Assembly: GCA_043739185.1 (NCBI GenBank)
Contig: JAYUEN010000258.1
Location: 1 to 14,644 of the forward strand
Direction of reading: 5' to 3'
DNA length: 14,644 bases
DNA from: Bdellovibrionales bacterium
GTDB taxonomy: Bacteria; Bdellovibrionota; Bdellovibrionia; Bdellovibrionales; JAMPXM01
Every line of letters begins with the position of its first letter. Position 1 is the stretch's first letter. Under the pieces are notes generated by a model, which worked only from the letters and a program-made list of their open reading frames with translations, was not told the DNA's origin and did not search any database. The translations under genes were made by a program, and so were the position numbers. Shown here piece after piece: positions 68-14,644 of this stretch.

Positions 68-631
68 TCAATACGACAACAAGCCTGAAACTTTCCGCAA
101 ATGACGAACCGGAGTCGAAACTTTAGGTAAGACATTAATATTATTGGGATCAAAAAACTCCCCTTCGTGAAGTGGAGATTTTCCTTTCGGATCCTGGGGT
201 TCAAGTCTACCAAATAATCCTTGCGCACTACGAATTTGATGCACAAGACTGCGAGTATCTACGCCCACAATTCCGGGCACCCCTTCAGCCTCCAACCACT
301 TCGAAAGACTCTGAACACTCTGCCAGTGAAAGGCGTCTGGGCTATTAGTAGAAATCACGACCCCATTGACATGAACTCGTCGACTTTCAAAGCCGGCAGT
401 TAACAGTCCCTTAATATCTTCTGTCATTTTTGGAATGCCATAATTTCCAATGAGCGGATATGAAAATACCAGAATTTGTCCATAATAAGACGGATCAGTC
501 AGCGATTCACTATAACCGACCATTCCAGTGTTAAAAACTAGATCGCCACTTGAAATAATTGGATGACCAATTAATTTTCCTTTAATTTTCTCACCAGTTG
601 AAAGGACAAGAGTACAACTTTGCTGCGCCAT
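68..631 (-). CDS. carA: Carbamoyl-phosphate synthase small subunit, N-terminal domain only (truncated or frameshifted before the glutaminase domain)
   Basis: Motifs LVLSTG, GDLVFNTGMVGYSESLTDPSYYGQILVFSYPLIGNYG, SLSKWL..EGVPGIVGVDTRSLVHQIR and the linker VST match the CPSase small-chain N-terminal domain. AGGA lies at 641-644, 9 nt before the ATG. The frame stops at 187 aa, while CarA is normally about twice that length. No SNGPG or GICLG glutaminase motif is present. Confidence 0.9.
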   Translation of the reverse strand: MAQQSCTLVLSTGEKIKGKLIGHPIISSGDLVFNTGMVGYSESLTDPSYYGQILVFSYPLIGNYGIPKMTEDIKGLLTAGFESRRVHVNGVVISTNSPDAFHWQSVQSLSKWLEAEGVPGIVGVDTRSLVHQIRSAQGLFGRLEPQDPKGKSPLHEGEFFDPNNINVLPKVSTPVRHLRKVSGLLSY

Positions 632-677
632 TGAAGAACTTCCTATATTTTATTGCCGAAATAAAGCACTCAATTTT

Positions 678-2453
678 TCAAGGTTTCTCTACAACATAAT
701 TTCCGACAACAAGTGCATCAAGTCCCGAAGTTGCGAATACTGCCATTACATCCTCTATTGAATGAGAAATTGGCTTTCCCATCACGTTGTAACTCGTATT
801 TAGAATTAGTGGGATTCCGGTAATTGCTTTAAATTCACTAATAAGATTGAAATATCTTTCATTCCATTCTTTTTTTACTGTCTGCAATCTTCCTGTTCCG
901 TCGAGATGAAAGACCGCTGGAACTTTCTTTCTTGCCGATTCTTTGAATCGAAGTGTTCTTTCCATATAGGGGGACTCTTGATAGTGTTCAAAATACTCGT
1001 CCCCATATTCATGAAGAATCGAGGGGGCAAATGGTCTAAACTCTTCACGGAATTTTACTTTGGCATTAATTTTTTCTTTCATTTCTTCAGAACGTGGATC
1101 AGCTAAAATTGATCGGTTGCCTAGGGCGCGAGGACCAAACTCAGCACGTCCCTGAATCCATCCAATAATTTTACCTGCTGCTAAAAGTTTTGCTCCAGCT
1201 TGAGCTACTTCCGAATCCGAATACTTTTTAGTTTTATATCCACAGTATAACATTGCACGATCAAGATCTTCATCCTCAATGATTGAACCCAAGTAGGGAG
1301 AATGAATTTTATTGGGATGTGAAGCTTTGGGATTATCCTCGTAAAAGGCCAGAACCGCAGCCCCGATGGCATTGCCGTCGTCGGCGGGTGCCGATGGGCA
1401 GAAAAGTGCTTTGAATTTAGTTTGATCTAGAATTTTACCATTCCAAGATGAATTGAGCGAACACCCGCCCCCTACAATTAAATTCTCAGACAAATTTAAC
1501 TTGTATAAATTGTTCAGCAATTGTTCCGCCCGGTCACAATAAAAAAGTTGACCCGTGTATGCCAAATCTTTCGCTTCGATTGGAGGCGAACCCTTTTTTC
1601 TTCCGTACTTTGTAATCAATTCAAAGGTCGCAGCTGTTGCATTTTCTGGTCTTACTAAATCAAGACCTTCAACTCTGACCATTTCACTCATCACTTTATA
1701 AATTTCATCATTTTTTTTGCCATAAGGAGCAAGACCCATTACCTTCCACTCATCACCAGCCATCGGATCGAAACCACAAGCTTGACAAACAGCCATATAA
1801 AAAAATCCAAGACTAACCTGTACACTTCTTGGCGTTGGTGGGCCGCTGATTTTCTCGACTTTCCCACCCTCTTTGAAGTGGTAAAATTTATAACTCGAAT
1901 CCTCACCGAAACCATCGATAATGGCGCAGACAGCCTCCTTCATTCCACTTGTATGGTAAGATGTCATCGCATGGGTTAGGTGATGATCGTAGGATTTCGT
2001 AGTCACATTACGACCTACTTTTCCAAGCACTGGAAATCCATAGTTTGTGGTAATTGTATCGCCGGTGTATCGAATGGTTTTCGATACGTTTCTCATTAAC
2101 TGAATACGACCATGGTTCACGTTCTTTTCATAAAGTTCTACTGAGCTATTTGATTTAGCGTCGGCTTGTACTTCATTTATCTTCACTTCGATATTCGAAA
2201 TTCTCTTCTCTATATCGCGAATAGCAACGTCACTCCATGTCTTGGCTAAAACCAAATCCGCGCCGGGTTCGCAATAGTTCTCAATAATATTATTAATTTC
2301 AAATGATATTTCAGGGGAGAGCCACAATGATCTCTTAAATTGAAAATATCGTTCAGATGCTTCAGCAAATACGATTTCTCCCTTACTATTTACTATTGCA
2401 ATCGCATTGTCGTGGCCCGTACAAGAAAGCCCAATATAATTTCGTTTCATCAA
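678..2453 (-). CDS. O-carbamoyltransferase, CmcH/NodU/TobZ family (Kae1-like N-domain plus YrdC-like C-domain)
   Basis: Family motifs: GHDNAIA, EASER, DHHLTHA, IDGFGE, SLGFFY, KVMGLAPYG, GGCSLN, DDGNAIG, GRAEFGPRALGNRSILADP, KFREEFRPFAPS, HLDGTGRLQTV, LNTSYN. The 591 aa length is typical. The true start may be the ATG at 2450 rather than the TTG at 2453. Confidence 0.95.
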   Translation of the reverse strand: MMKRNYIGLSCTGHDNAIAIVNSKGEIVFAEASERYFQFKRSLWLSPEISFEINNIIENYCEPGADLVLAKTWSDVAIRDIEKRISNIEVKINEVQADAKSNSSVELYEKNVNHGRIQLMRNVSKTIRYTGDTITTNYGFPVLGKVGRNVTTKSYDHHLTHAMTSYHTSGMKEAVCAIIDGFGEDSSYKFYHFKEGGKVEKISGPPTPRSVQVSLGFFYMAVCQACGFDPMAGDEWKVMGLAPYGKKNDEIYKVMSEMVRVEGLDLVRPENATAATFELITKYGRKKGSPPIEAKDLAYTGQLFYCDRAEQLLNNLYKLNLSENLIVGGGCSLNSSWNGKILDQTKFKALFCPSAPADDGNAIGAAVLAFYEDNPKASHPNKIHSPYLGSIIEDEDLDRAMLYCGYKTKKYSDSEVAQAGAKLLAAGKIIGWIQGRAEFGPRALGNRSILADPRSEEMKEKINAKVKFREEFRPFAPSILHEYGDEYFEHYQESPYMERTLRFKESARKKVPAVFHLDGTGRLQTVKKEWNERYFNLISEFKAITGIPLILNTSYNVMGKPISHSIEDVMAVFATSGLDALVVGNYVVEKP

Positions 2454-2459
2454 AAATTA

Positions 2460-2482
2460 CGAACCGAATCTGGTTCGCCTCC
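2460..2482 (-). promoter_or_regulatory. Shine-Dalgarno (GGAGG) followed directly by a 6 bp hairpin in the carbamoyltransferase 5' leader
   Basis: The mRNA reads GGAGG-CGAACC-AGAUUC-GGUUCG-UAAUUUUUG-AUG. GGAGG is at 2478-2482 and the stem arms are at 2472-2477 and 2460-2465. Confidence 0.5.
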
Positions 2483-2515
2483 GTCTTAGAATTTTTACTA
2501 ATTGTCTTTAGTTTG

Positions 2516-2544
2516 AGACTAACGATCCTTCAAAAGACTGTCAA
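2516..2544 (-). promoter_or_regulatory. Sigma70-type promoter for the carbamoyltransferase-carA unit
   Basis: Minus strand: perfect -35 TTGACA (2544-2539), 17 bp spacer, -10 TAGTCT (2521-2516, matching TAnnnT). It sits about 65 nt upstream of the start codon and in the correct orientation. Confidence 0.6.
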
Positions 2545-2855
2545 CACAAGAGCACGATCAAGACTTCTGGCCCCGGACTGCTTGCAAAAATTTAATTCAA
2601 CATCGAAGCACTTTTGAGCTGGATTTAAGTCAAGCTAAATGCGGTCCACAGTCGAACGGATTCAACATTATCCCAACCTGGCTCTTCGAACCAAGTATTT
2701 CACCATTTTCGATCAAGCAAAGTGTAAACTGTCTCGATTTGCATCTGATCCAACTCGACACAATCACCAATTTTTTTACAACTCAAAATTGAAGACGCGC
2801 TCTTGAATCATCCCTGCTTTAATTTTTTGTAACTGAGTTAAAGTACAAAACCAAG

Positions 2856-2884
2856 CTTATCAGCAGGACCTGCCTTATGATAAG
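2856..2884. other. Bulged inverted repeat downstream of the 160 aa ORF, possible terminator
   Basis: CTTATCA-GCAG-GAC-CTGC-(CTTA)-TGATAAG. It is followed on the minus strand by CTTGGTTTTG, a poor U tract. Confidence 0.2.
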
Positions 2885-2906
2885 AGCCCCGCATCTGGAG
2901 CATTGG

Positions 2907-3389
2907 TTAGAAAACCAAAATGGCACTATGTGCCGATTGCGAGTTGCTGAATGGCACGGGAATTCTTGCCATCAAAATCAAATCCTTATCCTTAAATTGT
3001 GCCGCTTGGTATGCTTTGAGCTTATGTTTCTTTCTCTTATAGATTTCTTTAATGTATTTTCGTTCGATCACTTCGATTTGCTTGATTGTTTTAAATTCGT
3101 TTGGAATCTCCCCCGAAAAATCGGCCCACTTTCCTAAAGCATGCTTTTCAATTAAATGAAGACGTGCTTGTTCTTCTAGACCATCGGGATAAATATCAAA
3201 GATAACTTCTTGGGCTTCTAAATTATTCCACCGGGTCTTAATCGTTTTTCCAGATTCATTGCGGACTTCACTTGCTGGGAACATGGCCTGACTAAATAGT
3301 AAATTGTCAGATTGGCTTTTCCCTCTCAGCCGATCAATTGCTTCTGGGAGAACCTCGCCGTTTTTGCTGCACGGCGGCCTTCTAGTCAA
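2907..3389 (-). CDS. Hypothetical protein, possibly a 5'-truncated remnant
   Basis: 160 aa ORF with protein-like charged composition, co-oriented with its neighbours. It has a TTG start without a clear SD. The frame stays open upstream to a TAA at 3419-3417. No family recognised. Confidence 0.45.
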   Translation of the reverse strand: MTRRPPCSKNGEVLPEAIDRLRGKSQSDNLLFSQAMFPASEVRNESGKTIKTRWNNLEAQEVIFDIYPDGLEEQARLHLIEKHALGKWADFSGEIPNEFKTIKQIEVIERKYIKEIYKRKKHKLKAYQAAQFKDKDLILMARIPVPFSNSQSAHSAILVF

Positions 3390-3408
3390 TTTTAATTTCT
3401 CTTTGATA

Positions 3409-3594
3409 TTGAAAACTTACTTCTCTTTGGTCTTGTTTTCGACCTCGAGTTTTGTATGTGAAGCATTCGCGGCAAATTGCATTGAAAGTCTCACACAAAT
3501 TCAAAGAGATAGTGGACCGATAACGAGAGGCTTGGTGGACAGGGACTTGAACTTGCGAATGCCAAATACTATCCGAACTCCACATGATGTTTGA
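3409..3594 (+). CDS. Possible small secreted protein or remnant (61 aa)
   Basis: From the TTG at 3409 it reads MKTYFSLVLFSTSSFVCEAFA/ANCIESL..., which resembles a Sec signal peptide with an AxA cleavage site. There is no SD, and it would start only 20 nt from the divergent ORF at 3389. Confidence 0.2.
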   Translation: MKTYFSLVLFSTSSFVCEAFAANCIESLTQIQRDSGPITRGLVDRDLNLRMPNTIRTPHDV

Positions 3595-3818
3595 CGAAGC
3601 CTCGCAAAATACTTTTGTCCGAAGAGCCCACTGACTTTTAATAAACATAATGACTGCGAAAAAAACTAAAAAAAATCCATTCAGGCAACTGAAAATATAA
3701 AATAACGATCAAAACGCGTCACTACAGATTTGATTGAAAATCACCATGTCCACATTCTACTTTCGATAAATTCGAGCTCAGGCACTTATCTATATTTTGA
3801 CTGTCGAGCTTGCAACCC

Positions 3819-5150
3819 TCATTTAAATTTAGAAAAAATCTCAGTCAATTGGAGGTCTTTGGTGCCAGATTCTTTTACTAGCGATTCAAAAAAGGTCGGC
3901 AGAAATTTTTTCAATTTCTCTGAAAATTCTCGTTTACTTTCATTGTCGCCAGGGGCCCGAATAACGACTTGCATTCCGCTCCCGGTGTCGACAAATAGAT
4001 AATATCCTTCAACCTGAGAACTTACCCGACCAGTGTCACTCTTAAAATATGCGTCAGAATTTACCACAATTTCTAAGGTTTCACTTTTTATGGTTTCAGG
4101 CTTTGGAATGAAGTTAAATCGAGCATTGCAAAGACTGTCACTATACTTATGTGTTGGTGGATATTCATTTTCCATACTCATCATTAGCTCATCGTTTACT
4201 CGATTGAGTAGGTCGAAAAAACTTGGATTTTCAGATATATCCACTTTCAAAGGGCAAGTACTCGAAAACTCGCCAATCATCTTCCACAATCGTTTATCTG
4301 ACCTGCCAAAATTTAGCATTTCTATATAAGAAGAATTCTTTTTGAGTCGATCAGCGAGTAGCATACCTATTGTGCCTAAAAGGACACTGCTAAATAACAA
4401 TCCATTTTCACTGCAAAAAACCTTTAACGAATTAAATACAGAAAGTGGAACTTCAGCCAAATAAATTTTAGCCTTTACAATTTCTTTTTTAGTTTCAGGT
4501 CCGCTTTCTGCTTCTGAAATTACCCCCTGCCAATACTCAAGTGACTCATCGAGCTCGCCTTCAGCTATCCTATTTCGAAAATCAATCGAGTAGGTTCCAT
4601 ATTGATATTCAGGAACCTCTTTAGAATCTACTCCATTTTTAATCAAAGAGTCATAATTCCGGACGACTTCTTCTACAAAACAGTAGAGTCCCCTCGCATC
4701 ATTAATTGAATGGTGCATGCCAAAAATAAAAATAAATCTACTTTCAGATTCTTTAAAAAGATTCAATTTCCAAAGAGGGGCCCGATAGTTTGGCAAACCC
4801 AGAACAAAGGACTCCGCAAAAACCCTAGCATATACTTCTTCTCGAGCTGCTGCGTCCAAATCAGAATGATCAGTACATGGTAAATCAAACTGAATTTCAG
4901 AATGAATTTCTTGAAAATAGACACCATCTTTTAAAGTATAGGATGTCCGTAAGACTTCATTTTCATGCACTGTCTTGCTGATGCTATTATTAAAAACATC
5001 AAGGCTTAAGGGGCCGTTTATTTCAACTCGAAATCCTAAGCTGTAAGTAGTTCCCTTGTTGCGAAGTTTACTGTCTGCAACTAACCAAATATCTTGCTGG
5101 GGAGAAGTTGTAACAAATTTGGAGGAGTTTAAACTCAAATTTTCTGCCAT
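3819..5150 (-). CDS. Stand-alone NRPS-type condensation domain protein
   Basis: C-domain core motifs appear in order: TSPQQDIW (C1), ENEVLRTSY (C2), APLWKLNL, MHHSINDARG (C3, HHxxxD), QYGTYS and YW (C4 region), IGEFSSTCPLKV (C5). At 443 aa it is one C domain with no A or PCP domain. GAGG lies at 5155-5158. Confidence 0.88.
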   Translation of the reverse strand: MAENLSLNSSKFVTTSPQQDIWLVADSKLRNKGTTYSLGFRVEINGPLSLDVFNNSISKTVHENEVLRTSYTLKDGVYFQEIHSEIQFDLPCTDHSDLDAAAREEVYARVFAESFVLGLPNYRAPLWKLNLFKESESRFIFIFGMHHSINDARGLYCFVEEVVRNYDSLIKNGVDSKEVPEYQYGTYSIDFRNRIAEGELDESLEYWQGVISEAESGPETKKEIVKAKIYLAEVPLSVFNSLKVFCSENGLLFSSVLLGTIGMLLADRLKKNSSYIEMLNFGRSDKRLWKMIGEFSSTCPLKVDISENPSFFDLLNRVNDELMMSMENEYPPTHKYSDSLCNARFNFIPKPETIKSETLEIVVNSDAYFKSDTGRVSSQVEGYYLFVDTGSGMQVVIRAPGDNESKREFSEKLKKFLPTFFESLVKESGTKDLQLTEIFSKFK

Positions 5151-5203
5151 AGAACCTCACTAACAAAAAAAGCACAAATTAGATTTAATTTTCTTTTATT
5201 TCT

Positions 5204-6289
5204 TTACACTTCAGCGGCCGAAAGCTTTTCTTCAATTTGTACCTCAACACCAATGTTTGCCAAGGTCTCCTGGGCGGGAAGAACGTCCCCCGGGCCCCAA
5301 ACTCCAGGTCGAGCAATGAAATTGTCTGACAAAAAATATTTCACTGACTCTAAAATCATCAGCGCAGTAATAAAATAAGGATCACAAGAAAACATCGTTG
5401 CTTTTGAGGTTTCACCAGCCTCATTCGTTGCTATGACTGAAACCCAACAAGTTTGCTCTTTACGTTCCTCTTCAGTTGGCCCTTCAAAACTCTTCGAAGA
5501 ATGTTTTTTTAAAATCAATTCGATCGGGACTGGAGGTGCGGTCGAATATCCAAGGTACATTTTGGCATCTTCTTCGGGATAAACGAAATAGCTGATTGAT
5601 TTTTGCAATTTATATCGACGCGTGAAAAAACTTATTTCGGGATAGGGCAAGTAATAAGCAGTTTGAGATTCTCCTCGAATTTGAAATTCACGTGAAACCG
5701 AAAATGGTGGACTATCTTGCTTTGCTCCCCCCTCAAGAAACCAGCGCTTTTGATATCTTCCTAAGTCCATTGTGAAATAGGTCCCTGGAGAAGCTTTACC
5801 TTCGTTCACATAATAAACTGAAGAAACTTCGGAGAAAGATTCTCCGGGCATACAAATAAGTGTTGAAAGAAGGTCCGCATAGGCCGACTCAAAAGAAACA
5901 GAGTGAATAATTTGGGCGCCACTCTTTAAAGCCGCTTCGTGATTTTCAGTAATGGACCAATCTACAAAGGCTTCTTCACCAGTCAAATCTATGTAAATAG
6001 CACAAGATCGCGCAGCAAGTGTTTTAACCAATGTTTTACAAAATTGAAAGTATGGACCCACGCAATTGATCAGAATTGGCGAATCCGCCAATAGACTAGT
6101 CACTTGACTCTCATCACTAATGTCGACAACTTGGCAAGCTATCGTCATCTCATTTTTCGCTTTAAATTCTTCTAATTTTTCTAAATTGCGACCCGCAATG
6201 GTGAATTTTATTTGATTCTCTTTTAAAAGCTTCGCAATCATTTCGCCGGTATACCCGGTGGCACCCAAAAGAATAACTTTTCGTTGCAT
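5204..6289 (-). CDS. Saccharopine dehydrogenase-like NAD(P)-binding oxidoreductase (trans-acting enoyl reductase family)
   Basis: Rossmann motif LLGATGYTG, then IAGRNLEKL, LINCVGPY, YIDLTGE, SFES (GFDS-like) and a C-terminal PGV. AAGGA lies at 6296-6300, 6 nt before the ATG. Confidence 0.85.
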   Translation of the reverse strand: MQRKVILLGATGYTGEMIAKLLKENQIKFTIAGRNLEKLEEFKAKNEMTIACQVVDISDESQVTSLLADSPILINCVGPYFQFCKTLVKTLAARSCAIYIDLTGEEAFVDWSITENHEAALKSGAQIIHSVSFESAYADLLSTLICMPGESFSEVSSVYYVNEGKASPGTYFTMDLGRYQKRWFLEGGAKQDSPPFSVSREFQIRGESQTAYYLPYPEISFFTRRYKLQKSISYFVYPEEDAKMYLGYSTAPPVPIELILKKHSSKSFEGPTEEERKEQTCWVSVIATNEAGETSKATMFSCDPYFITALMILESVKYFLSDNFIARPGVWGPGDVLPAQETLANIGVEVQIEEKLSAAEV

Positions 6290-6353
6290 GCAAATTCCTT
6301 GGTCGTTTAATGGTAGGTACTAAATAGTAGTCCAATTTATTTAGACACTCGTT

Positions 6354-6382
6354 AGGCTATAATTTGCACCGTTCAAAATCAA
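6354..6382 (-). promoter_or_regulatory. Possible internal sigma70-like promoter for the reductase and C-domain genes
   Basis: TTGATT (6382-6377), 17 bp spacer, TAGCCT (6359-6354), within the 147 nt gap after the PKS stop. It could be a chance match in AT-rich DNA. Confidence 0.25.
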
Positions 6383-6436
6383 CCTGTATTAACCTACCCT
6401 TTTCTTACTGGACCAAGATCAGTAAAGCGAAATCAA

Positions 6437-9400
6437 CTAGCCTCTCGCCTTCTTTTCTTCTTCGACTAAAACAGATCTCAATAAAAATTCGGTCAACGCA
6501 TCAATTGTCGGATAGTTGAAAATGAGCTTCACCGTGAATGGATAATTTAAATCTTTCTTTAAACGATTTCGAAGCTCCAAAGCAGTCAATGAATCCATTC
6601 CCAAAGTCATGAGCCCCTTAGATGTGTCAATAGCGACATCTTTTTTTGCTCCGATAATGCTGACGACGTGGTCAACTAAAAATTTAGTAACCATTTCCTT
6701 TCGTTCACTTTCGGATGCTCCCAAAACCTTAAGCTGTAAGGCGCTTCCAGTCTTTTTCGCTTTCTTTTCTGGTTTAACTAATTCGATGACTCTTCTTTGC
6801 GGAGCAAACTGACCAAAGAAGCTATTGGTTAAATTCTCTGGAGTTTTTATTAAATATTTATTCCATTCAATAGGTAAAACACAAATTTGAGATCTTTCAG
6901 AATTTATTGCTCGCCCTAAACTTTCACGACCCTTTTCGACGCTAATTAACGACAAGCCGGCTAGACTCATCAATTCTCGAGATTTTTCATCCATTTCTTT
7001 TGCCATTCCCACTTCAGCCCATGGCCCCCAATTGACTGACAGCCCCTTTAAACCCTGACTCTTTCTAAATCTTGCAAGGGCATCCAAATAAGAATTTGCA
7101 GCACCATAATTACATTGCCCCTGATTTCCTAGTAGCGCCGTGGTTGACGAAAATAACACAAAAAGATCAAGCTTCATGTCTTGAGTATAGTGATGTAGAT
7201 TCCAACTGCCTTTTATTTTGGGTGACATTACCTTTTCAAAGGATTCCCAATTTTGATTTGGCAAAAATGCATCGGCAATGACACCTGCGGCATGTATCAC
7301 ACCTTTAAGATCGGGTTCACCATCTTTTTTTAATTTTGCAATTATGGCCGCAACATCTTGCTCTTTACTGACATCTCCCAGAGCAATCGTTATTTTAACG
7401 CCTTTTTCAAGCAAGCTCTCAATAAGGATTTTGGATTCAGATTGAGGAGCATTTCGACCCATAAGCAAGAGATGTTTCGCCCCCTGATCAGCCAACCATA
7501 CTGCCATTCTTAAACCAAGCCCCCCGAGCCCACCGGTAACGAGATAACTTCCGTCGGACGAGATTTTAACTTTCTCTGAAAAATCTAGTTTTTTCCTACT
7601 CAATCTTGCCACCTGACGTAAACCCCCGCGATAAGCGATCTGGGTCTCATCATCAAATTGAACTATTTCTTTCAAAATTTCTGCAGCCTGAATATCTTTA
7701 GTTGAAGAATTTTCGGTATCTACAATTTTGGGTTTCAATTCAGGACATTCAACGGTTAATACCTTTGCAAAGCCCCAGAGTGGCGCTTGCGCAAGATTTG
7801 AAATTTTTTCAGTAAATACCTGCTGAGCTCCGCTAGTAATAAAAGTCAGTTTCGGTGGTTTCGCCTCAAGCTTTGAAAGAATGGCCTTCGTCAGGGCCAA
7901 AGCGCTACCGTAGCCTAATCGTTGACTCTCTCCCAGCTCTTCGGAGCTCAACATGGACCCAATAGATTTAATGTTTAAGCTCCACAAGTGAACAACGTGA
8001 GATAAAGGATATTCCTTCATTTCCGGGTTGAGCAATAAACCAGAAACCACTTCTTCAATTCGCTTCTCATTCTTTTCTAGTTCGGGCTCTGCCATAACGG
8101 TGAAAATGCGCCTCTCAGGTACAGTGCCCATTTTGACGAGCTCGTCACCTATACCGACTTTGTCGGTAAAAATAATCCAGCTTTCTTTTTCTTGATTTTT
8201 CGTGGCCACAGGCAAATCCTTCTGAATCCATTCAGTTTCATAGAAAATCTCTTTCTCGTCTTGAGCCCCTCCACCGAGGGCTTTTAATAAATCTGCCTTT
8301 GATGCGCGGGCCGATGTGAAATTCTTAACTTCTGCGATCTTCTCTGAACTATCATTGTAAATCACGAGATCAGAAGAAATTGTCTTTCCCCCAACGACAT
8401 CACTCGTTGTACCTGTCACATGACACCAAACCCGGTCGCCATGCTGAGCTTGTACATTAATTTCTTCAAACGAAACCGGCAAATAAATGTGCTGTTCTCC
8501 CGCGCCAAATTTATGGAGGACTCCTGTCGCTTGTAAGCAATTGTCTAGTATGATTGGGTGAATTTGATGTTTGCCTCCCGGCAATTGAACTTCTTTGGGT
8601 AAGTGAATTTCTGCCAACAACTCACCCTTCGCCCTGCGTATCGATTGAATAGCTCTGAAGTTTGGTCCGTACTCTAGACCTCCGGATTCATACTTTTTGT
8701 AGAGCTGCTCAGTTGAAACCACTTCTGTGCAACGAGTTTTAATGTCGGCAAGAGCGTCTTCAGCAAATTCAAATTTACTTGCTCGGGCAAGCTTACCGGT
8801 TGCGTGAGTTTTCCATTCTTGTTTTTCGGACCGGCTTAGCACTTCAAATTCTGTTATTCCATTTTTCTCAGGACTCACCAGCAATTGCACTTTGACACTT
8901 TTTTGATCTCGGAATACAAGCGGACGCTCAATTGACATTTCTCTGACTTCGCTAGAAGAACCAAAGATTTCAAATCCCGCTGCAAGAGCCATCTCTACAT
9001 AGCCGGTACCTGGCATGATGACGTTTCCGTAAACCACATGGTCTTTCAAGTAACTTGGGCTACTAGCACTCAAATCACTTTCAAAAATATTTTCACCATT
9101 TGCGGCTGCCATTCTTCGCCAGAGAAGAGGATGTACCATCTCACTCATGCCTTGGCCCAAATGAATCTCTTTTGTTTCGACCCAGTATTTTTGACGTTGA
9201 AATGGATAGGTTGGAAGCTTAACTTTACTTCGAGTTGGTGTATCGGTTTCAAATCTCTTCCAATCGAAGCGAACACCAGAAGTATAGAGCGAACCTACAC
9301 TTTCAAGAAGTTGTTCCCATTCTGGCCGATCTTTTTTAAAGCTCGTAAGCCAACTTCCTTCGTCGCTACTTTCAATGCAAGACTGACCCATTCCGCCGAG

Positions 9401-12400
9401 AGTCGTCCCAGCTCCTATTTCAAGGTAGCGGCGATATCCCTCATTCCAAATCGCTTTAATTCCATGCTCAAACCTGACCGCCTCTCTTACGTGACTTCTC
9501 CAGTATTTAGGTTTGCAAATGATTTCTTCAGTAACTCTAGCCCCTGTCAGATTTGAAATGAGTTTTATTTTTGGTGCAAAATAATTTATTTCACTTGCGA
9601 CCTTTTCAAATTCATCTAACATGCCATCCATTTGCGAAGAATGAAACCCGTGCGAAACGGCTAATTCTTTTACTTTCAATCCCTGTGCCTCAAACTTTTT
9701 CAAAACCTCTCGAATCGAATTTCGATCACCAGAAATACTGGTGTTCGTGGGTCCGTTATATGCGGCGATAGAGAGCTTGTTGCCATAGGTTTGAATGGCT
9801 GCCAGAACTTGTTCGCCATCTGCGCTCACCACTCCCATGCCGCAGTCGCCAGTTAATTTCTGCATGAGCTGGCCACGTTTAGCGATGAGCTTGATGCCAT
9901 CTTCTAAACTGAATACTCCAGCCACACAGGCTGCGACGAGCTCTCCTACTGAGTGCCCCATCACTGCGCTCGGCTCAACTCCCCAACTTCTCCAGAGCTC
10001 ACTCAGTGCATACTCAATTACAAATAATGCCGGCTGCGTATATGCGGTCTCATTGAGTTTTTCTTTATTCTCTCCCCAAATAACAGACAAAATCGGCAGC
10101 TCCAAATATGAATTTAAAATCTTTGCACAGTGATCAATGGCTTTCTTAAAAGTCGGCTGCGAATCATAAAGTTCTTTTCCCATGCCAAAATACTGAGAGC
10201 CCTGACCTGAAAACAAATAAACTAATTCTTCTGTAATGGTGTCTTTGCCAATGACTTTTGCTCTCGATACGCCAGCCTCAAGTTCTCCTTCAAGAAATTT
10301 GGTGATCTTTGCTTTCATTTCTTGCGGCGTCTTACCAACGACTGCCAAGCGCTCATCAAAATGGGTTCTCCCTTCAGAAGCAGTAAAACAAATATTAGAA
10401 AGTACTGGCAGATTATCTTGAGATAAAAATTTAACGTATCGGTTCGCGAGTGCTTTTAAGGCTGACTCATTTCGTCCTGATAAAACTAAAACCTGAAGTG
10501 GGCGCTCCACGGACTTTACTTTATTAATGACTCGTGGTTTCGGAGCTTCTTCAATTACCACATGGGCAATGGTTCCGGTCATTCCAAATGAACTGACGCC
10601 GGCTAATTTTGGTCCGTCATATTCGGGCCAATTTGTTAGCTCCATTGGAATTTTGGCCGGAATGTCTGTCAAATTAATATTGGGATTTAGCTTTTTCATT
10701 CCTAAATGTGGAGGAATCTTGTTATGCTCCATCGCAAGAACGGTTTTAATCAATCCCGCAATGCCTGCTGCACCCTCGGTATGACCAAAATTGGATTTTA
10801 CAGAAGAGACATAGAGCGGCCTCGCGGAGTCTCTTTTGTTTTTCATTACTCCTGTAAGAGCTTGCATCTCAAGTGGATCGCCGAGCGGTGTACCGGTACC
10901 ATGCGCCTCAATGTATGAAACATCTTTGGCTTTAATCCCAGCATTTTCAAATGCATGGTTTATAAGTTCTTCTTGAGCCTTCCCATTGGGGGCTGTTGGA
11001 CTCACTGAACGTCCACCGTGCATGATCGCCGATCCTCTAATCACAGCTTGAATACGGTCGCCTGAGGCAATGGCCTCAGACATGCGCTTTAAAATGATGA
11101 CTCCACAGCCTTCTGCTCGAACGTAACCATTTGCTTTCTCATCAAAGGTCAATGACTCACCTGTTGGCGAAAGGGCATGCGCTCTCGACATTTGCATAAA
11201 GGATCTCAATCCTAAAATATTGAGGCCCACAACAATTGCTCGTTCGCAATTGCCAGATCTCAAACTCTCGCAGGCTAAATCAATTGCCACGAGTGAAGAA
11301 GAACATGCCGTATCCGTAGTTAACATCGGACCTTGTGCACCTAGAAAATAAGACAATCTTCCGAATGCGATATTCAGTGCAAAAAACTCAAATTGGCTGA
11401 GGTCAGACTTTGAACCACGCAATACTTCCTTATAGTCTTGCCACATGGTGGAGCCAACAAATAGCCCAGTTTGGCCGCCAAATATTTTGGCCTTAGTTTC
11501 ACCCGCATCTTCTAGGGCCTCCCAAGCAGTTTCGAGTAGCATTCGAACGCCAGGCTCAGAATAATTTGCCTCTACTTTTGTGATGCCAAAAAACTCGGGA
11601 TCAAATTCATCAATGCCAATTCCGCTGATGAATCCACCACGACGAGTTGCAATTTTGTTCGGAACATCTGGATCTGGATCGTAATAATCATCAATATTCC
11701 AGCGCTCTTTCGGAACTTCAACAATACCACTCTTACCTTGTGAGAGCATTTCCCAGAATGATTCTAAATCGTTTGCTCCGCCCGGAAAGCGACACGACAT
11801 TCCCACGATTACGATTGGATCGTTCTCTTTCGCAGTAGAGCTCTTCTTTGCCTTTGTCGTCGCCGGGTGAACAGCTTTCGAAGCTTCTGCTCCTTCGACT
11901 TTTTCAACGATTAATACTGAAGTTAACAAATGATCAACGAGGGCATCAATTGTCGGATAAGTAAATATCAGTGTCGCTGAAAATGAAAAGTTGAGTTCTT
12001 TCTTAAGTTTATTTCTAAATTCAATTGCTGCCAATGAATCCAGTCCTAAACTCATGAGGCCTTTACTTGTATCGATCGCGCCGTCCTCAGGGCGAGCACC
12101 AATGAGCTTTGCAACATGATCGACTAAAAACTTAGTCACAATTGCTTTTCTCTCACTCTCAAGGGCCGCTTGTACTTTTTTCTGTAAAGCACTAGCCTCT
12201 TTTTTCTCTTTTGGCGCTGTTTTCTTAAGAGAGGCGAAGGAACTCAAATAAGTTTTGACCAATAAATCAGGCACCGTAACTAAATTCTTACTCCAATCAA
12301 TTGGAATAACCGCTAAATGTGAAAAATTAGAATTGATGATCTTACCTAGAGTCTCTTGCCCCTGATTGACTGAAATCAATGTGAGTCCCGCTTGCGAAAG

Positions 12401-14548
12401 TTGCTCTTTTGACTTCTCATTCATTTCTTTCGCCATGCCCACTTCGGCCCAAGGTCCCCAATTAATCGATACACCTGGTAAACCCAGGTTTTTTCGATAA
12501 GAGGCCAAACTATCTAAGAAAAGATTGGCGGCCCCGTAGTTTGCTTGACCCTGGTTACCTAAAACTGAAGTCGTTGAAGAAAACAAAACGAAAAAGTCTA
12601 ACTTTATGTCTCTCGTCAATTTATGTAAATTCCAACCGCCCTTAACTTTTGGACTCATTACTTTTTCAAACGAACCCCAAGTCTGTTTCATCAAAGAGGC
12701 ATCTTCGATGACCCCAGCTGCATGGATCACGCCCTTAAAATCGGGAGTCTTATCTGCCTTCATTTTTGCTATCACGGCAGAAAGATCTTGTTCTTTCGCC
12801 ACATCACCTAGTGCTATCGAAACTTGAACGCCTCGAGCTCGTAAGTTTTCAATTATTGTTTTTGAGTCGGCTGCTGGTTCTTTTCTTCCCATCAATACAA
12901 GATGCTTCGCACCTTGATCAGCTAACCAAATACCCATTCTTAAACCCAAACCACCAAGACCACCGGTGATCAAATAGCTGCCCTCTGGATTGACCTTTAC
13001 ACTTGCCGTAGTCTCTAATTTCTTCTTATTTAATCTTGCAAGCATTCGAGAGCCTGAGCGATAAATGATCTGCGGCTCATCCTCTGCTTGACTCAATTCT
13101 TTAAAAATCAAATCAGCCATTTGCTCTGGAGTTTGCAAACTATCAAGATCCATCATTTTTGATTTAAGTTCTGGATGCTCCATCAAGAGTACTCTTGAAA
13201 GCCCCCACACCGGAGACTGCTCGATGTTCGAATTCTTATCCCCTTCAAGTTGCACAGCACCGCTAGTTACAAAATTAAGGCGCGGAGGTTTTGCTCCAAA
13301 CTTTTTTAATATGACTTTAGCTACGGCCAAAGCACTGCCGTATCCTGTTTGCTGAAGATTAAGCAGCTCTTCGCCGCTCATATCTACGCGGTGCTTATTC
13401 ATATCAAGACTTGTGAGGTGAATCATATTTGTAATCACCTGACCACTTGTCTTCGCAACATTTATAATTTGAGTAATTTTATCTTCTAATTCTTTCTCTA
13501 ATACTTCACCCTGCTGAGTACTACTAATAAGGTGAAGCTTGGTGCCTTGAACACCAGCAAGCTTCTCTAAGCGCTCACTCATTCCAGACTTATCTGAAAA
13601 TACAATCCAACTTGCCTTGACACTTTCTTTTTTAGAAGTCGTAATTTCTTTCTTAACCCAGTCGACTCCGTAAAACCATTCTTTGCCACCGACTTTTGCT
13701 TCTTGCGTCTCAATTCCCAAGGCCTTAAATAAATCAGCCTTAGAAGCTAGGGCTGATGTGAAATTCTTAACTTCCGCAATCTTCTCTGAATTATCATTGA
13801 AAATCACGAGATCAGAAGAAATCGTCTTGCCACCAACCACATCACTCGTTGAGCCTGTAACATGACACCAAACTCGGTCACCGTGCTGAGCTTGTACATT
13901 GATGTCTTCAAACGAAACCGGCAAATAAATGGGTTTTTCAGAAGTGAGTGACTCATGAAGTGAACCCGTAGACTGCAAACAATTATCTAAAATTACCGGG
14001 TGTAATCGATAACTATTTGTCTGAGATTGAAGTCCTGCCGGCAGTTTGATCTCGGCGAGCAATTCGCCCTTGCCTCTTTTTACAGACTGAATAGCTCTAA
14101 AGTTTGGTCCATATTCTATTCCACCAGTACGATAAGTATTATAAATTTCATCGACAGAAACATTTTGGTTCATTCGACTTTTAATTTCAGCTAAGCTCTC
14201 TTCAGACCTTTCGAATGGAGTGGCAAGCGAGATCTTTCCGCTGGCGTGAGTTCTCCAACCGCCTTCTTCTGAATGACTAAAGATTTCAAAAGCCATTAAA
14301 CCATTTTCTTCTTCACCAACTTTGATTTGGATTTTAACAGATTTGTCGCCATTAAAAACCAAGGGTCGCTCGATTGAAATTTCTTTCACAGCACTTGGTG
14401 CACCTAGAATTTCAAAGCCTGCCGCCAAAGCCATCTCAACATAGCCAGCACCAGGCATAATGACCTTGCCGTACACGACGTGATCTAGAATATATTCTGG
14501 GTTTTTTGCGCTCAGTTCACTTTCAAAAACGTTCATTAGCAACCTCAA
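6437..14548 (-). CDS. cis-AT modular type I polyketide synthase, 5'-partial: DH-KR-ACP-KS-AT-DH-KR-ACP, no ER and no TE
   Basis: DH: HVVYGKVIMPG and HVVYGNVIMPG, each with LDNCLQ. KR: GGLGGLG, HAAGVI(E/A)D, NYGAAN (twice). ACP: GLDSL and GMDSL. KS: DTACSSS, HGTGT, KSNFGH. AT: GQGSQ, GHSVG, HGFHS. The TTG at 14548 is not the real start, because homologous coding sequence continues to the window edge in another frame. Confidence 0.97.
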   Translation of the reverse strand: MRLLMNVFESELSAKNPEYILDHVVYGKVIMPGAGYVEMALAAGFEILGAPSAVKEISIERPLVFNGDKSVKIQIKVGEEENGLMAFEIFSHSEEGGWRTHASGKISLATPFERSEESLAEIKSRMNQNVSVDEIYNTYRTGGIEYGPNFRAIQSVKRGKGELLAEIKLPAGLQSQTNSYRLHPVILDNCLQSTGSLHESLTSEKPIYLPVSFEDINVQAQHGDRVWCHVTGSTSDVVGGKTISSDLVIFNDNSEKIAEVKNFTSALASKADLFKALGIETQEAKVGGKEWFYGVDWVKKEITTSKKESVKASWIVFSDKSGMSERLEKLAGVQGTKLHLISSTQQGEVLEKELEDKITQIINVAKTSGQVITNMIHLTSLDMNKHRVDMSGEELLNLQQTGYGSALAVAKVILKKFGAKPPRLNFVTSGAVQLEGDKNSNIEQSPVWGLSRVLLMEHPELKSKMMDLDSLQTPEQMADLIFKELSQAEDEPQIIYRSGSRMLARLNKKKLETTASVKVNPEGSYLITGGLGGLGLRMGIWLADQGAKHLVLMGRKEPAADSKTIIENLRARGVQVSIALGDVAKEQDLSAVIAKMKADKTPDFKGVIHAAGVIEDASLMKQTWGSFEKVMSPKVKGGWNLHKLTRDIKLDFFVLFSSTTSVLGNQGQANYGAANLFLDSLASYRKNLGLPGVSINWGPWAEVGMAKEMNEKSKEQLSQAGLTLISVNQGQETLGKIINSNFSHLAVIPIDWSKNLVTVPDLLVKTYLSSFASLKKTAPKEKKEASALQKKVQAALESERKAIVTKFLVDHVAKLIGARPEDGAIDTSKGLMSLGLDSLAAIEFRNKLKKELNFSFSATLIFTYPTIDALVDHLLTSVLIVEKVEGAEASKAVHPATTKAKKSSTAKENDPIVIVGMSCRFPGGANDLESFWEMLSQGKSGIVEVPKERWNIDDYYDPDPDVPNKIATRRGGFISGIGIDEFDPEFFGITKVEANYSEPGVRMLLETAWEALEDAGETKAKIFGGQTGLFVGSTMWQDYKEVLRGSKSDLSQFEFFALNIAFGRLSYFLGAQGPMLTTDTACSSSLVAIDLACESLRSGNCERAIVVGLNILGLRSFMQMSRAHALSPTGESLTFDEKANGYVRAEGCGVIILKRMSEAIASGDRIQAVIRGSAIMHGGRSVSPTAPNGKAQEELINHAFENAGIKAKDVSYIEAHGTGTPLGDPLEMQALTGVMKNKRDSARPLYVSSVKSNFGHTEGAAGIAGLIKTVLAMEHNKIPPHLGMKKLNPNINLTDIPAKIPMELTNWPEYDGPKLAGVSSFGMTGTIAHVVIEEAPKPRVINKVKSVERPLQVLVLSGRNESALKALANRYVKFLSQDNLPVLSNICFTASEGRTHFDERLAVVGKTPQEMKAKITKFLEGELEAGVSRAKVIGKDTITEELVYLFSGQGSQYFGMGKELYDSQPTFKKAIDHCAKILNSYLELPILSVIWGENKEKLNETAYTQPALFVIEYALSELWRSWGVEPSAVMGHSVGELVAACVAGVFSLEDGIKLIAKRGQLMQKLTGDCGMGVVSADGEQVLAAIQTYGNKLSIAAYNGPTNTSISGDRNSIREVLKKFEAQGLKVKELAVSHGFHSSQMDGMLDEFEKVASEINYFAPKIKLISNLTGARVTEEIICKPKYWRSHVREAVRFEHGIKAIWNEGYRRYLEIGAGTTLGGMGQSCIESSDEGSWLTSFKKDRPEWEQLLESVGSLYTSGVRFDWKRFETDTPTRSKVKLPTYPFQRQKYWVETKEIHLGQGMSEMVHPLLWRRMAAANGENIFESDLSASSPSYLKDHVVYGNVIMPGTGYVEMALAAGFEIFGSSSEVREMSIERPLVFRDQKSVKVQLLVSPEKNGITEFEVLSRSEKQEWKTHATGKLARASKFEFAEDALADIKTRCTEVVSTEQLYKKYESGGLEYGPNFRAIQSIRRAKGELLAEIHLPKEVQLPGGKHQIHPIILDNCLQATGVLHKFGAGEQHIYLPVSFEEINVQAQHGDRVWCHVTGTTSDVVGGKTISSDLVIYNDSSEKIAEVKNFTSARASKADLLKALGGGAQDEKEIFYETEWIQKDLPVATKNQEKESWIIFTDKVGIGDELVKMGTVPERRIFTVMAEPELEKNEKRIEEVVSGLLLNPEMKEYPLSHVVHLWSLNIKSIGSMLSSEELGESQRLGYGSALALTKAILSKLEAKPPKLTFITSGAQQVFTEKISNLAQAPLWGFAKVLTVECPELKPKIVDTENSSTKDIQAAEILKEIVQFDDETQIAYRGGLRQVARLSRKKLDFSEKVKISSDGSYLVTGGLGGLGLRMAVWLADQGAKHLLLMGRNAPQSESKILIESLLEKGVKITIALGDVSKEQDVAAIIAKLKKDGEPDLKGVIHAAGVIADAFLPNQNWESFEKVMSPKIKGSWNLHHYTQDMKLDLFVLFSSTTALLGNQGQCNYGAANSYLDALARFRKSQGLKGLSVNWGPWAEVGMAKEMDEKSRELMSLAGLSLISVEKGRESLGRAINSERSQICVLPIEWNKYLIKTPENLTNSFFGQFAPQRRVIELVKPEKKAKKTGSALQLKVLGASESERKEMVTKFLVDHVVSIIGAKKDVAIDTSKGLMTLGMDSLTALELRNRLKKDLNYPFTVKLIFNYPTIDALTEFLLRSVLVEEEKKARG
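6480..9134 (-). other. DH-KR-ACP of the last module
   Basis: DH His at 9038-9040. KR GGLGGLG near 7514-7535. ACP Ser at 6590-6592. Only about 15 residues follow the ACP. Confidence 0.9.
8313..8489. repeat. Intragenic direct repeat, copy 2 (C-terminal part of the DH)
   Basis: Hand alignment with 13755-13931 (offset 5442 nt) gives 161/177 identical nucleotides with no gaps. Confidence 0.9.
9340..10225 (-). other. Acyltransferase domain, predicted malonyl-CoA specific
   Basis: TAYTQPALF, GHSVG (Ser at 9950-9952) and VSHGFHS, a variant of the HAFH malonyl motif rather than the methylmalonyl YASH. Confidence 0.8.
10542..11821 (-). other. Ketosynthase domain of the last module
   Basis: Runs from DPIVIVGMSCRFPG to AHVVIEEAP. 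Catalytic Cys at 11303-11305 (DTACSSS). Both histidines (HGTGT and GHTEGAAG) are present. Confidence 0.95.
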
Positions 14549-14570
14549 TTCTTCTACCTAAAAGAGGATG
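11920..14570 (-). other. PKS penultimate visible module (partial): DH, KR, ACP
   Basis: DH His at 14480-14482. KR GGLGGLG near 12945-12965 and catalytic Tyr near 12537. ACP Ser at 12035-12037. Domain boundaries are approximate. Confidence 0.9.
13755..13931. repeat. Intragenic direct repeat, copy 1 (C-terminal part of the DH)
   Basis: Hand alignment with 8313-8489 gives 161/177 identical nucleotides with no gaps. Confidence 0.9.
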
Positions 14571-14644
14571 GACATTTTGCCCAGTTTTCAGGTGAACAAC
14601 GACATTCTTTGTTTCGATCCAATATTTTTTTCTTTGAAATGGAT
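14523..14644 (-). CDS. Upstream part of the same PKS (post-AT linker and start of the DH) in a shifted frame
   Basis: It translates as (Y)PFQRKKYWIETKNVVVHLKTGQNVHPLLGRRIEVANERF*, matching the internal copy YPFQRQKYWVETKEIHLGQGMSEMVHPLLWRRMAAANGENIFES. Confidence 0.9.
   Translation of the reverse strand, partial: PFQRKKYWIETKNVVVHLKTGQNVHPLLGRRIEVANERF

Follow-up and report, generated by a model that had tools for sequence, protein, structure and literature searches.

In the biosynthesis of enacyloxin IIa in Burkholderia (Bamb_5915/Bamb_5917), the polyketide synthase (PKS) chain is reported to be released by a free-standing condensation (C) domain; Bamb_5915 is described as carrying an N-terminal beta-hairpin docking domain and as acting on a separate peptidyl carrier protein (PCP)-SLiM (short linear motif) protein (PMC9113145, PMC13324335). 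The palmerolide A assembly line of Candidatus Synoicihabitans palmerolidicus is described as ending in a C domain instead of a thioesterase (TE), as being accompanied by a carbamoyltransferase and as carrying, in its last four modules, dehydratase-ketoreductase (DH-KR), KR, DH-KR with a trans-acting enoyl reductase (ER) and DH-KR, respectively (PMC8739492). The kalimantacin/batumin pathway (BatF, BatK) offers, according to its description, a precedent for late O-carbamoylation combined with a trans-acting ER (PMC5089993). In these accounts, C-domain release and trans enoyl reduction are therefore both precedented (PMC8739492, PMC9113145, PMC13324335, PMC5089993). Here, we compare with these systems a stretch of 14,644 nucleotides (hereafter, the window), which is the entire contig JAYUEN010000258.1 (C258) of a Bdellovibrionales genome bin (GCA_043739185.1, G000; 4.85 Mb, 540 contigs, 97.65% complete, 3.73% contaminated). 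Our main reading, to which we assign a probability of roughly 60%, is that the window holds the 3' end of a modular cis-acyltransferase (cis-AT) PKS cluster, native to one genus of Bdellovibrionota, which was working until recently and is probably inactive in this population.

The window carries five biosynthetic genes, all on the minus strand (as are all gene coordinates below) and delimited from open reading frames (ORFs) and Pfam domains: a PKS, a saccharopine-dehydrogenase-fold protein, a C domain, an O-carbamoyltransferase and carA. The co-oriented set announced by the original prediction is thus recovered at the places it gave, and its domain calls hold; the tight run of genes that it implied does not, as an IS66 fragment lies in a gap of 1,365 nt. 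The GC content, computed per kb, ranges from 36 to 45%, and a promoter scan returned 6 sites versus 15.3 in shuffled sequences, i.e. fewer than the shuffled expectation.

By Pfam, the PKS ORF (6437–14548) reads DH-KR-acyl carrier protein (ACP)-ketosynthase (KS)-AT-DH-KR-ACP, with neither ER nor TE, which bears out the earlier description of a TE-less synthase ending at an ACP, with two DH-KR modules devoid of ER. It comprises the second half of a module C (DH-KR-ACP, 11831–14548) and a complete module D (KS-AT-DH-KR-ACP without TE, 6437–11830), lettered after the four-module run described below. In module D, the KS (about 10697–11821) displays the Cys-His-His triad, the AT (about 9275–10222) GHSVG and HGFH, the DH (about 8291–9133) its His and Asp, the KR an xxD motif and Tyr, and the ACP GMDSL; in module C, the DH again retains His and Asp, the KR (about 12443–12982) xxD and Tyr, and the ACP (about 11927–12130) GLDSL. 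The Cys-His-His KS, the integral AT with GHSxG, the ACP serine and the presence of several modules identify a modular cis-AT type I PKS, although its reading frame is broken near 14536 and again by an insertion sequence (IS) in the inferred upstream KR. Since the ACP of module D has a tail of only ~10 residues, versus the longer linkers that join internal ACPs to the next KS, module D is taken as the final module of the assembly line. By general motif rules, which also serve here for the KR and DH, an AT with GHSVG and HGFH is of the malonyl type.

Three other contigs of the bin appear to carry the preceding part of this PKS. C89 and C44 terminate in opposite ends of the same IS, whose target is duplicated over 4 nt, and the KR frame resumes across this element, which splits the KR of module A. 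C44 and C108 overlap by 97 nt, and the end of C108 and the start of the window lie one base apart within one conserved linker motif. From these junctions, we infer that four KS-AT-DH-KR-ACP modules, lettered A to D, follow one another along C89, C44, C108 and the window. The ATs that can be seen appear to be malonyl-specific throughout, and in the DH of module B, Glu replaces the catalytic Asp, with a weak Pfam score (E 1e-15 versus 3e-30 for C89). By the motif rules, the modules would extend with malonyl units, modules A, C and D would dehydrate, and module B would probably leave a hydroxyl because Glu stands in place of the DH Asp. The predicted chain end would be R-CH=CH-CH(OH)-CH2-CH=CH-CH=CH-CO-S-ACP, or would contain one double bond fewer if the oxidoreductase of the window is a trans enoyl reductase.

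Many other type I PKS fragments are found elsewhere in the bin, among the matches listed (C492, C481, C143, C351, C49, C415, C527, C206, C276, C236, C359, C340, C175 and C398). They include an AMP-ligase-ACP-KS-AT starter adjoining a large Ser/Thr-kinase gene, one ER-bearing module and a PKS-nonribosomal peptide synthetase (NRPS) hybrid, and some are common to the sister genome G002 at 60–80% identity. Three PKS ends (C481, C351, C143) bear a TE; a hand-over of the chain to such a subunit was considered and judged unlikely, given the few residues that follow the terminal ACP.

PKS genes of this kind seem to be at home in the host genus. PKS dehydratase (PS-DH) matches occur in three of its four genomes and in none of the 31 other genomes of the family; in a phylum sample of 401 genomes, 23 have such a match, with eight scored in the host bin, two in one genome and one in each of the remainder. 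Because the KSs of the window, C44, C108 and G002 form one clade in the KS tree (SH-aLRT 100), and because PKS genes of G002 are up to 80% identical to those of the bin, the sequences argue for a native expansion of PKS modules in this lineage rather than for mis-binning. The original prediction had argued against an actinomycete, myxobacterial or Burkholderia host, and in this it is supported: the best PDB match of PGI is 7nss (E 5e-91, the next being 2e-42), which is reported as the PGI of B. bacteriovorus (PMC8354745). Together with a Bdellovibrio plasmid match of the IS66 remnant described below and the names borne by a few CarA relatives, this points to a host in Bdellovibrionota, probably in Bdellovibrionales.

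Sequencing reads inform on the recent history of the cluster. Runs X1 and X2 may be the source of the bin, and X3 and X4 come from the same study; the comparison of runs covers 40 of the 477 differences, 24 of the 49 loose ends and 32 of the 120 pieces. Depth in X1 is even (6.7–9.3) across 490–14644. X3 and X4 contain a related strain, 90–99% alike, with pieces of the carbamoyltransferase, the C domain, the oxidoreductase and the PKS. Among the 40 of 477 differences between X3/X4 and the window, all in the KS-AT region, 33 fall at third codon positions, and 32 of 37 codons are synonymous, which at the sequence level is the mark of purifying selection having acted on KS-AT after the strains diverged. 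As these codon changes are mostly silent, the cluster would have been functional until recently. In X3/X4, one contig departs from the window sequence at 659, in the interval separating carA from the carbamoyltransferase, and insertions of 1 base and 12 bases are seen at 2499 and 2895, respectively.

Release of the finished chain is most simply attributed to the stand-alone C domain (443 aa, 3819–5150; Pfam Condensation, E 1e-36), a candidate chain-release enzyme with the active-site motif HHSINDA at residues 146–152 (HHxxxD). This part of the original prediction remains the simplest reading, given the lack of a TE and the short ACP tail. By precedent, the domain would move the chain from the last ACP onto a hydroxyl or an amine, yielding a macrolactone or an ester/amide. 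Its Condensation match begins at residue 14 and its PDB alignments at residues 9–26, so that an N-terminal beta-hairpin docking domain is not seen in either; no separate PCP gene and no acceptor-making gene lies within the window, and Bamb_5915 is not among the 29 PDB matches. Its relatives are distant: a first protein search retrieved only the domain itself among 5,614 candidates, and in a second, the other 149 of the best 150 matches were multi-module NRPSs (21–27% identical), a search which ranks whole proteins and in which a distant stand-alone relative could be hidden.

Only 53 nt separate this gene from that of the oxidoreductase (361 aa, 5204–6289), an NAD(P)H enzyme of the saccharopine-dehydrogenase fold (Pfam Sacchrp_dh_NADP, E 1e-11), for which a role as trans enoyl reductase is about an even bet on the sequence evidence. 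Its structure model (pLDDT 89) shows the saccharopine-dehydrogenase fold with a Rossmann motif and matches lysine dehydrogenase (Z 28.0), carboxyspermidine dehydrogenase (TM 0.7), saccharopine dehydrogenase and homospermidine synthase, with Z of 24–28 and 13–16% identity overall. Its closest relatives (27–36% identical) form a clade from a type II fatty acid synthase (FAS)-like cluster of FabZ, two KSs, a short-chain dehydrogenase/reductase (SDR) and radical-SAM genes. This context is found at 12 of the 17 best metagenome loci listed, the other five being contigs of <1.9 kb, and no usual enoyl reductase is seen among the genes matched at those 12 loci; none of the 59 metagenome loci listed for the saccharopine-dehydrogenase (SDH)-like relatives has an AT, DH, C or carbamoyltransferase match. 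Such a context fits acyl-chain reduction, and the fold also fits imine reduction.

Hence a second possibility, which differs from our main reading in the oxidoreductase step only: the enzyme would act as an imine reductase or an amine dehydrogenase and supply an amine acceptor, onto which the C domain would release a polyene amide with no double bond removed. The top fold matches, all of them amine/imine oxidoreductases, speak for it, as do the position of the gene directly before that of the C domain and the placement of P0244, an entry named ‘trans-acting enoyl reductase family protein’, in a separate clade. We nevertheless regard it as possible but doubtful, as the fold matches share only 13–16% identity, the enzyme's own clade belongs to KS/SDR/FabZ clusters where no usual enoyl reductase is seen among the genes matched, and Rv2953, with the same Pfam domain, is described as an enoyl reductase (PMC3089613). 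The source cluster of this clade is a conserved one, which also occurs in the bin itself (C113:11837–27891) and at L051, L052, L056, L057, L062–L066, L084, L141 and L142; besides the FabZ-like gene, the two type II KSs, the SDR and the SDH-like oxidoreductase, it comprises a left-handed beta-helix protein, an MMPL-like exporter, an oxidoreductase pair, radical SAM proteins and a PLP-lyase-like gene (labels partly from N-termini).

The case for recent inactivation rests on lesions, three of which lie in the window and escaped the original prediction: the element in carA, the IS66 remnant described below and a break in the PKS frame. The carA ORF (68–631; Pfam CPSase_sm_chain) is in fact a fragment with ~178 codons of its own (98–631), encoding the N-terminal CPSase small-chain domain and lacking the glutaminase half. 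Nucleotides 1–97 (no strand assigned) are the end of a high-copy mobile element of ~1.65 kb (IS-like) inserted ~178 codons into carA, as established by shared contig ends and depth. Indeed, they are 100% identical to the ends of C165 and C337 (95–96 nt) and 98% identical over 58 nt to C7; they provide the last codons and the stop of the carA ORF, and the same residues close an unrelated ORF of C165. The element end lies on unitigs of 1,626 and 1,654 nt at depths of 242 and 221, versus 7–8 for the locus (~30-fold), and a unitig spanning 69–1263 runs unbranched through the carA-element junction in both X1 and X2. In the first depth bin, which covers the element end, depth is 3.7–3.8 in X3/X4 versus 68–94 otherwise, with no high depth in X3/X4. 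Neither the body of the element nor its other end was recovered from the bin, and the metagenome contigs gave 0 matches. More generally, 16 end sequences recur in the bin and together account for 81 of its 1,080 contig ends, a sign that ISs may have expanded in this population.

Intact relatives of this CarA measure ~370 aa and are 57–60% identical to the window protein, the product of an additional gene copy that shares 33% identity with the housekeeping carA of C116. A search of the bin with 10 close relatives detected no 3' half of carA, and no second carB was found either, the sole carB being that of the intact housekeeping pyrB-carA-carB locus on C116; an unbinned contig could hold either. 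The CarA call of the original prediction is accordingly correct for the N-terminal domain, and fails for a complete enzyme, whose glutaminase domain and CarB partner were not found. By precedent, the second, acquired carA(B) would have raised the supply of carbamoyl phosphate.

At the other end, the linker between AT and DH and the first DH strand of module C (14523–14642) lie in a shifted frame that ends in a stop, with the break near 14536. The PKS ORF does not, as had been thought, simply run off the contig. At the break, the AT-DH junction lacks 5 nt relative to three sister modules, and a 207-nt unitig of X1 matches the broken sequence letter for letter, at a depth of 2.4 versus 7.8 beside it. 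Mobile elements and the frame break have thus probably inactivated the cluster in this population. The statement of the original prediction that this locus makes a carbamate-bearing polyketide cannot be kept for this population, whose carA and PKS carry lesions.

It could be argued that the cluster is still active: housekeeping CarAB would substitute for the lost copy, the PKS break would affect only a minority allele or would be a split bridged by translational coupling, and C89 and C44 would belong to another PKS or to a sub-population. The intact locus on C116 and two PPTase-family (phosphopantetheinyl transferase) genes in the bin are compatible with this, the carbamoyltransferase, C domain, oxidoreductase and module D retain open frames and motifs, the break is followed by an ATG that a GAGG motif closely precedes, and the break-bearing unitig stands at about a third of the local depth. 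However, the break deletes part of the conserved DH junction, where no docking sequence is present, the 97-nt overlap of C44 and C108 places the KR split by the IS in the same run of genes, and no intact-junction contig appears among the indels listed. Continued activity therefore seems improbable, and we retain the inactivated cluster as our main reading.

The O-carbamoyltransferase (591 aa, 678–2453; Pfam Carbam_trans_N and Carbam_trans_C) belongs to the TobZ/NovN/GdmN family, with PDB matches to NovN (E 4e-72), GdmN and TobZ. Judged by its sequence, the gene looks intact; the conserved motifs are present, including those that we take to be the metal-binding His/Asp and the active Lys. In the tree, the enzyme falls in a 100/100 clade with enzymes 44–52% identical to it, a secondary-metabolite clade, and the earlier call is thereby borne out; among the eight other loci of this clade, four adjoin PKS genes, one lies in a terpene cluster and three are elsewhere. 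By precedent, the enzyme would add an O-carbamate, and the likely product, by analogy with known pathways, would be a partly unsaturated polyketide that bears this O-carbamate and is offloaded by the C domain. The clade has other members nearby and afar: a second carbamoyltransferase of the bin (C107:36433–49209; 44% identical), conserved in G002 (L023), neighbours a Rieske-type gene, an MMPL-like gene and an acyl-processing operon, and a plasmid of Planktothrix agardhii (NZ_LR882940.1, L131), which has a terpene cyclase, P450 and Rieske cluster, carries one beside a tuf copy.

The gap between the C-domain and carbamoyltransferase genes contains a 160-aa ORF without Pfam match, from which an IS66-family tnpC remnant was recognized (2913–3452), i.e. 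an N-terminal part with an in-frame stop and no DDE domain. It is 47% identical to residues 40–221 of a 528-aa DDE_Tnp_IS66 protein of G028, and matches family members and a Bdellovibrio plasmid as well. This raises the question of whether the carbamoyltransferase and carA arrived next to the PKS as an independent cassette, leaving the polyketide uncarbamoylated. Apart from the remnant itself, a carA of this type lies within 1.5 kb of a carbamoyltransferase at 5 of 19 loci of other phylum members, among the matches listed, and none of these five genomes has a PS-DH match. The cassettes in question (L133, L134, L135, L136 and L137, in G217, G182, G415, G213 and G315, respectively) consist of carbamoyltransferase and carA, with carB where the contig reaches, and some sit among glycan-type genes, as read from N-termini. 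The pairing thus recurs in the phylum and is not by itself proof of a PKS link. Yet the cassette carbamoyltransferases are only 25–38% identical to the window enzyme and fall in a different clade, whereas the window enzyme groups with the enzymes of which half stand beside PKS genes; moreover, both sides of the gap share strand and depth, and the related strain holds pieces of each. A separate cassette is in our view quite improbable. The finding that would have counted against the original prediction, namely pairs unlinked from a PKS in related genomes, was therefore made in part: pairs without a modular PKS exist, but with carbamoyltransferases of another clade.

That the contig was mis-binned from another organism is very hard to sustain: the fragmentation and contamination of the bin, a 16S gene not found in it and a tetranucleotide distance of C258 (1.16–1.28) above the long-contig mean of 0.99 could be invoked, yet this distance stays below the 95th percentile (1.35), G002 shares the PKS genes and KS clade, the element end is common to three other contigs of the bin, and the IS66 remnant has its matches in the family and on a Bdellovibrio plasmid.

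Several points nonetheless weigh against our main reading. The join between C108 and the window is an abutment without overlap, which none of the contigs listed spans, and the start of the cluster is unassembled, the KS and AT of module A lying outside the assembled sequence. Given its depth of 2.4, the PKS frame break could be a minority allele. DHs bearing Glu may be active, and the IS66 remnant separates the carbamoyltransferase and carA from the other cluster genes. Finally, no C domain over the cut-off is present in the three other genomes of the genus (88–100% complete), and no second genome has the full gene set, the SDH-like and carbamoyltransferase matches within the genus belonging to other loci.

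Multi-module reducing PKSs being rare in the phylum, a genus with several such clusters represents an unexplored source of polyketides. If true, the enoyl-reductase role would add a new clade to the enzymes known for trans enoyl reduction and assign a function to a gene of a widespread uncharacterized cluster. The value of the locus is limited by its fragmentation, by the lesions in this population and by the precedent for each chemistry. One may go further and imagine that the genus built its own cis-AT PKS by module duplication and recruited a new type of trans enoyl reductase, an orphan C domain as macrocyclase and its own carbamoyl-phosphate synthase, converging on a palmerolide-like logic for a carbamoylated macrolactone, with the X3/X4 strain keeping a working cluster; as a whole, this scenario is unlikely.

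Compared with described systems, the window shows likenesses to several of them. The carbamoyltransferase shares both domains and the motifs of TobZ, NovN and GdmN, and stands in a distinct subclade. Its best plasmid match (50%) lies in a PKS cluster of Eleftheria terrae (NZ_CP106953.1, L130), which contains a beta-branching cassette, a carbamoyltransferase, FabV and a free AT, in a gene order that presumably resembles that of kalimantacin. As in the window, a cis-AT PKS (40% identical) adjoins a same-clade carbamoyltransferase (47%) on plasmid pC052_C of Nostoc sp. C052 (NZ_CP040275.1; L132 and L140, spanning the origin); this cluster is, however, a hybrid PKS/NRPS with an integral ER, a methyltransferase and a TE-bearing protein, and no SDH-like gene or carA is annotated in the stretches shown. 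It also contains an aminotransferase and a separate PCP-TE protein, and we know of no characterization of it. The mycobacterial Rv2953 (PDIM/PGL, i.e. phthiocerol dimycocerosate/phenolic glycolipid) is, like the window oxidoreductase, a free-standing protein with a saccharopine-dehydrogenase Pfam domain beside ER-less modules, a likeness by description; in contrast, the window enzyme derives from the clade of the type II FAS-like cluster.

The analogy drawn by the original prediction with enacyloxin, whose cluster reportedly includes a carbamoyltransferase, holds for the free-standing C domain with its HHxxxD motif and not for the docking parts as far as the window shows them, the window having no beta-hairpin on the C domain, whose match starts at residue 14, and no PCP gene. 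Kalimantacin resembles the window by its description, and differs as a trans-AT, beta-branched system with a TE fragment (PMC5089993), where the window is cis-AT without TE. The supposed novelty of the locus stands in that no close characterized cluster was found in the data searched, MIBiG being outside that scope; likewise, the literature searched yielded no published account of this gene set or of a modular PKS in Bdellovibrionota, within the portions of text it covered. A parallel in architecture is palmerolide, whose modules 10–13 are echoed by the inferred modules A–D; the ene/OH/reduced/ene match holds only if the contig joins, the inactive DH of module B and the action of the oxidoreductase on module C hold. 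Palmerolide is described as a trans-AT PKS-NRPS product with a fused, truncated C domain of 133 aa (PMC8739492), whereas the window has integral ATs and a separate C domain of 443 aa, so that the relation is one of resemblance, not of membership. The locus is thus an unfamiliar combination of known chemistries, each kind of which has its precedent.

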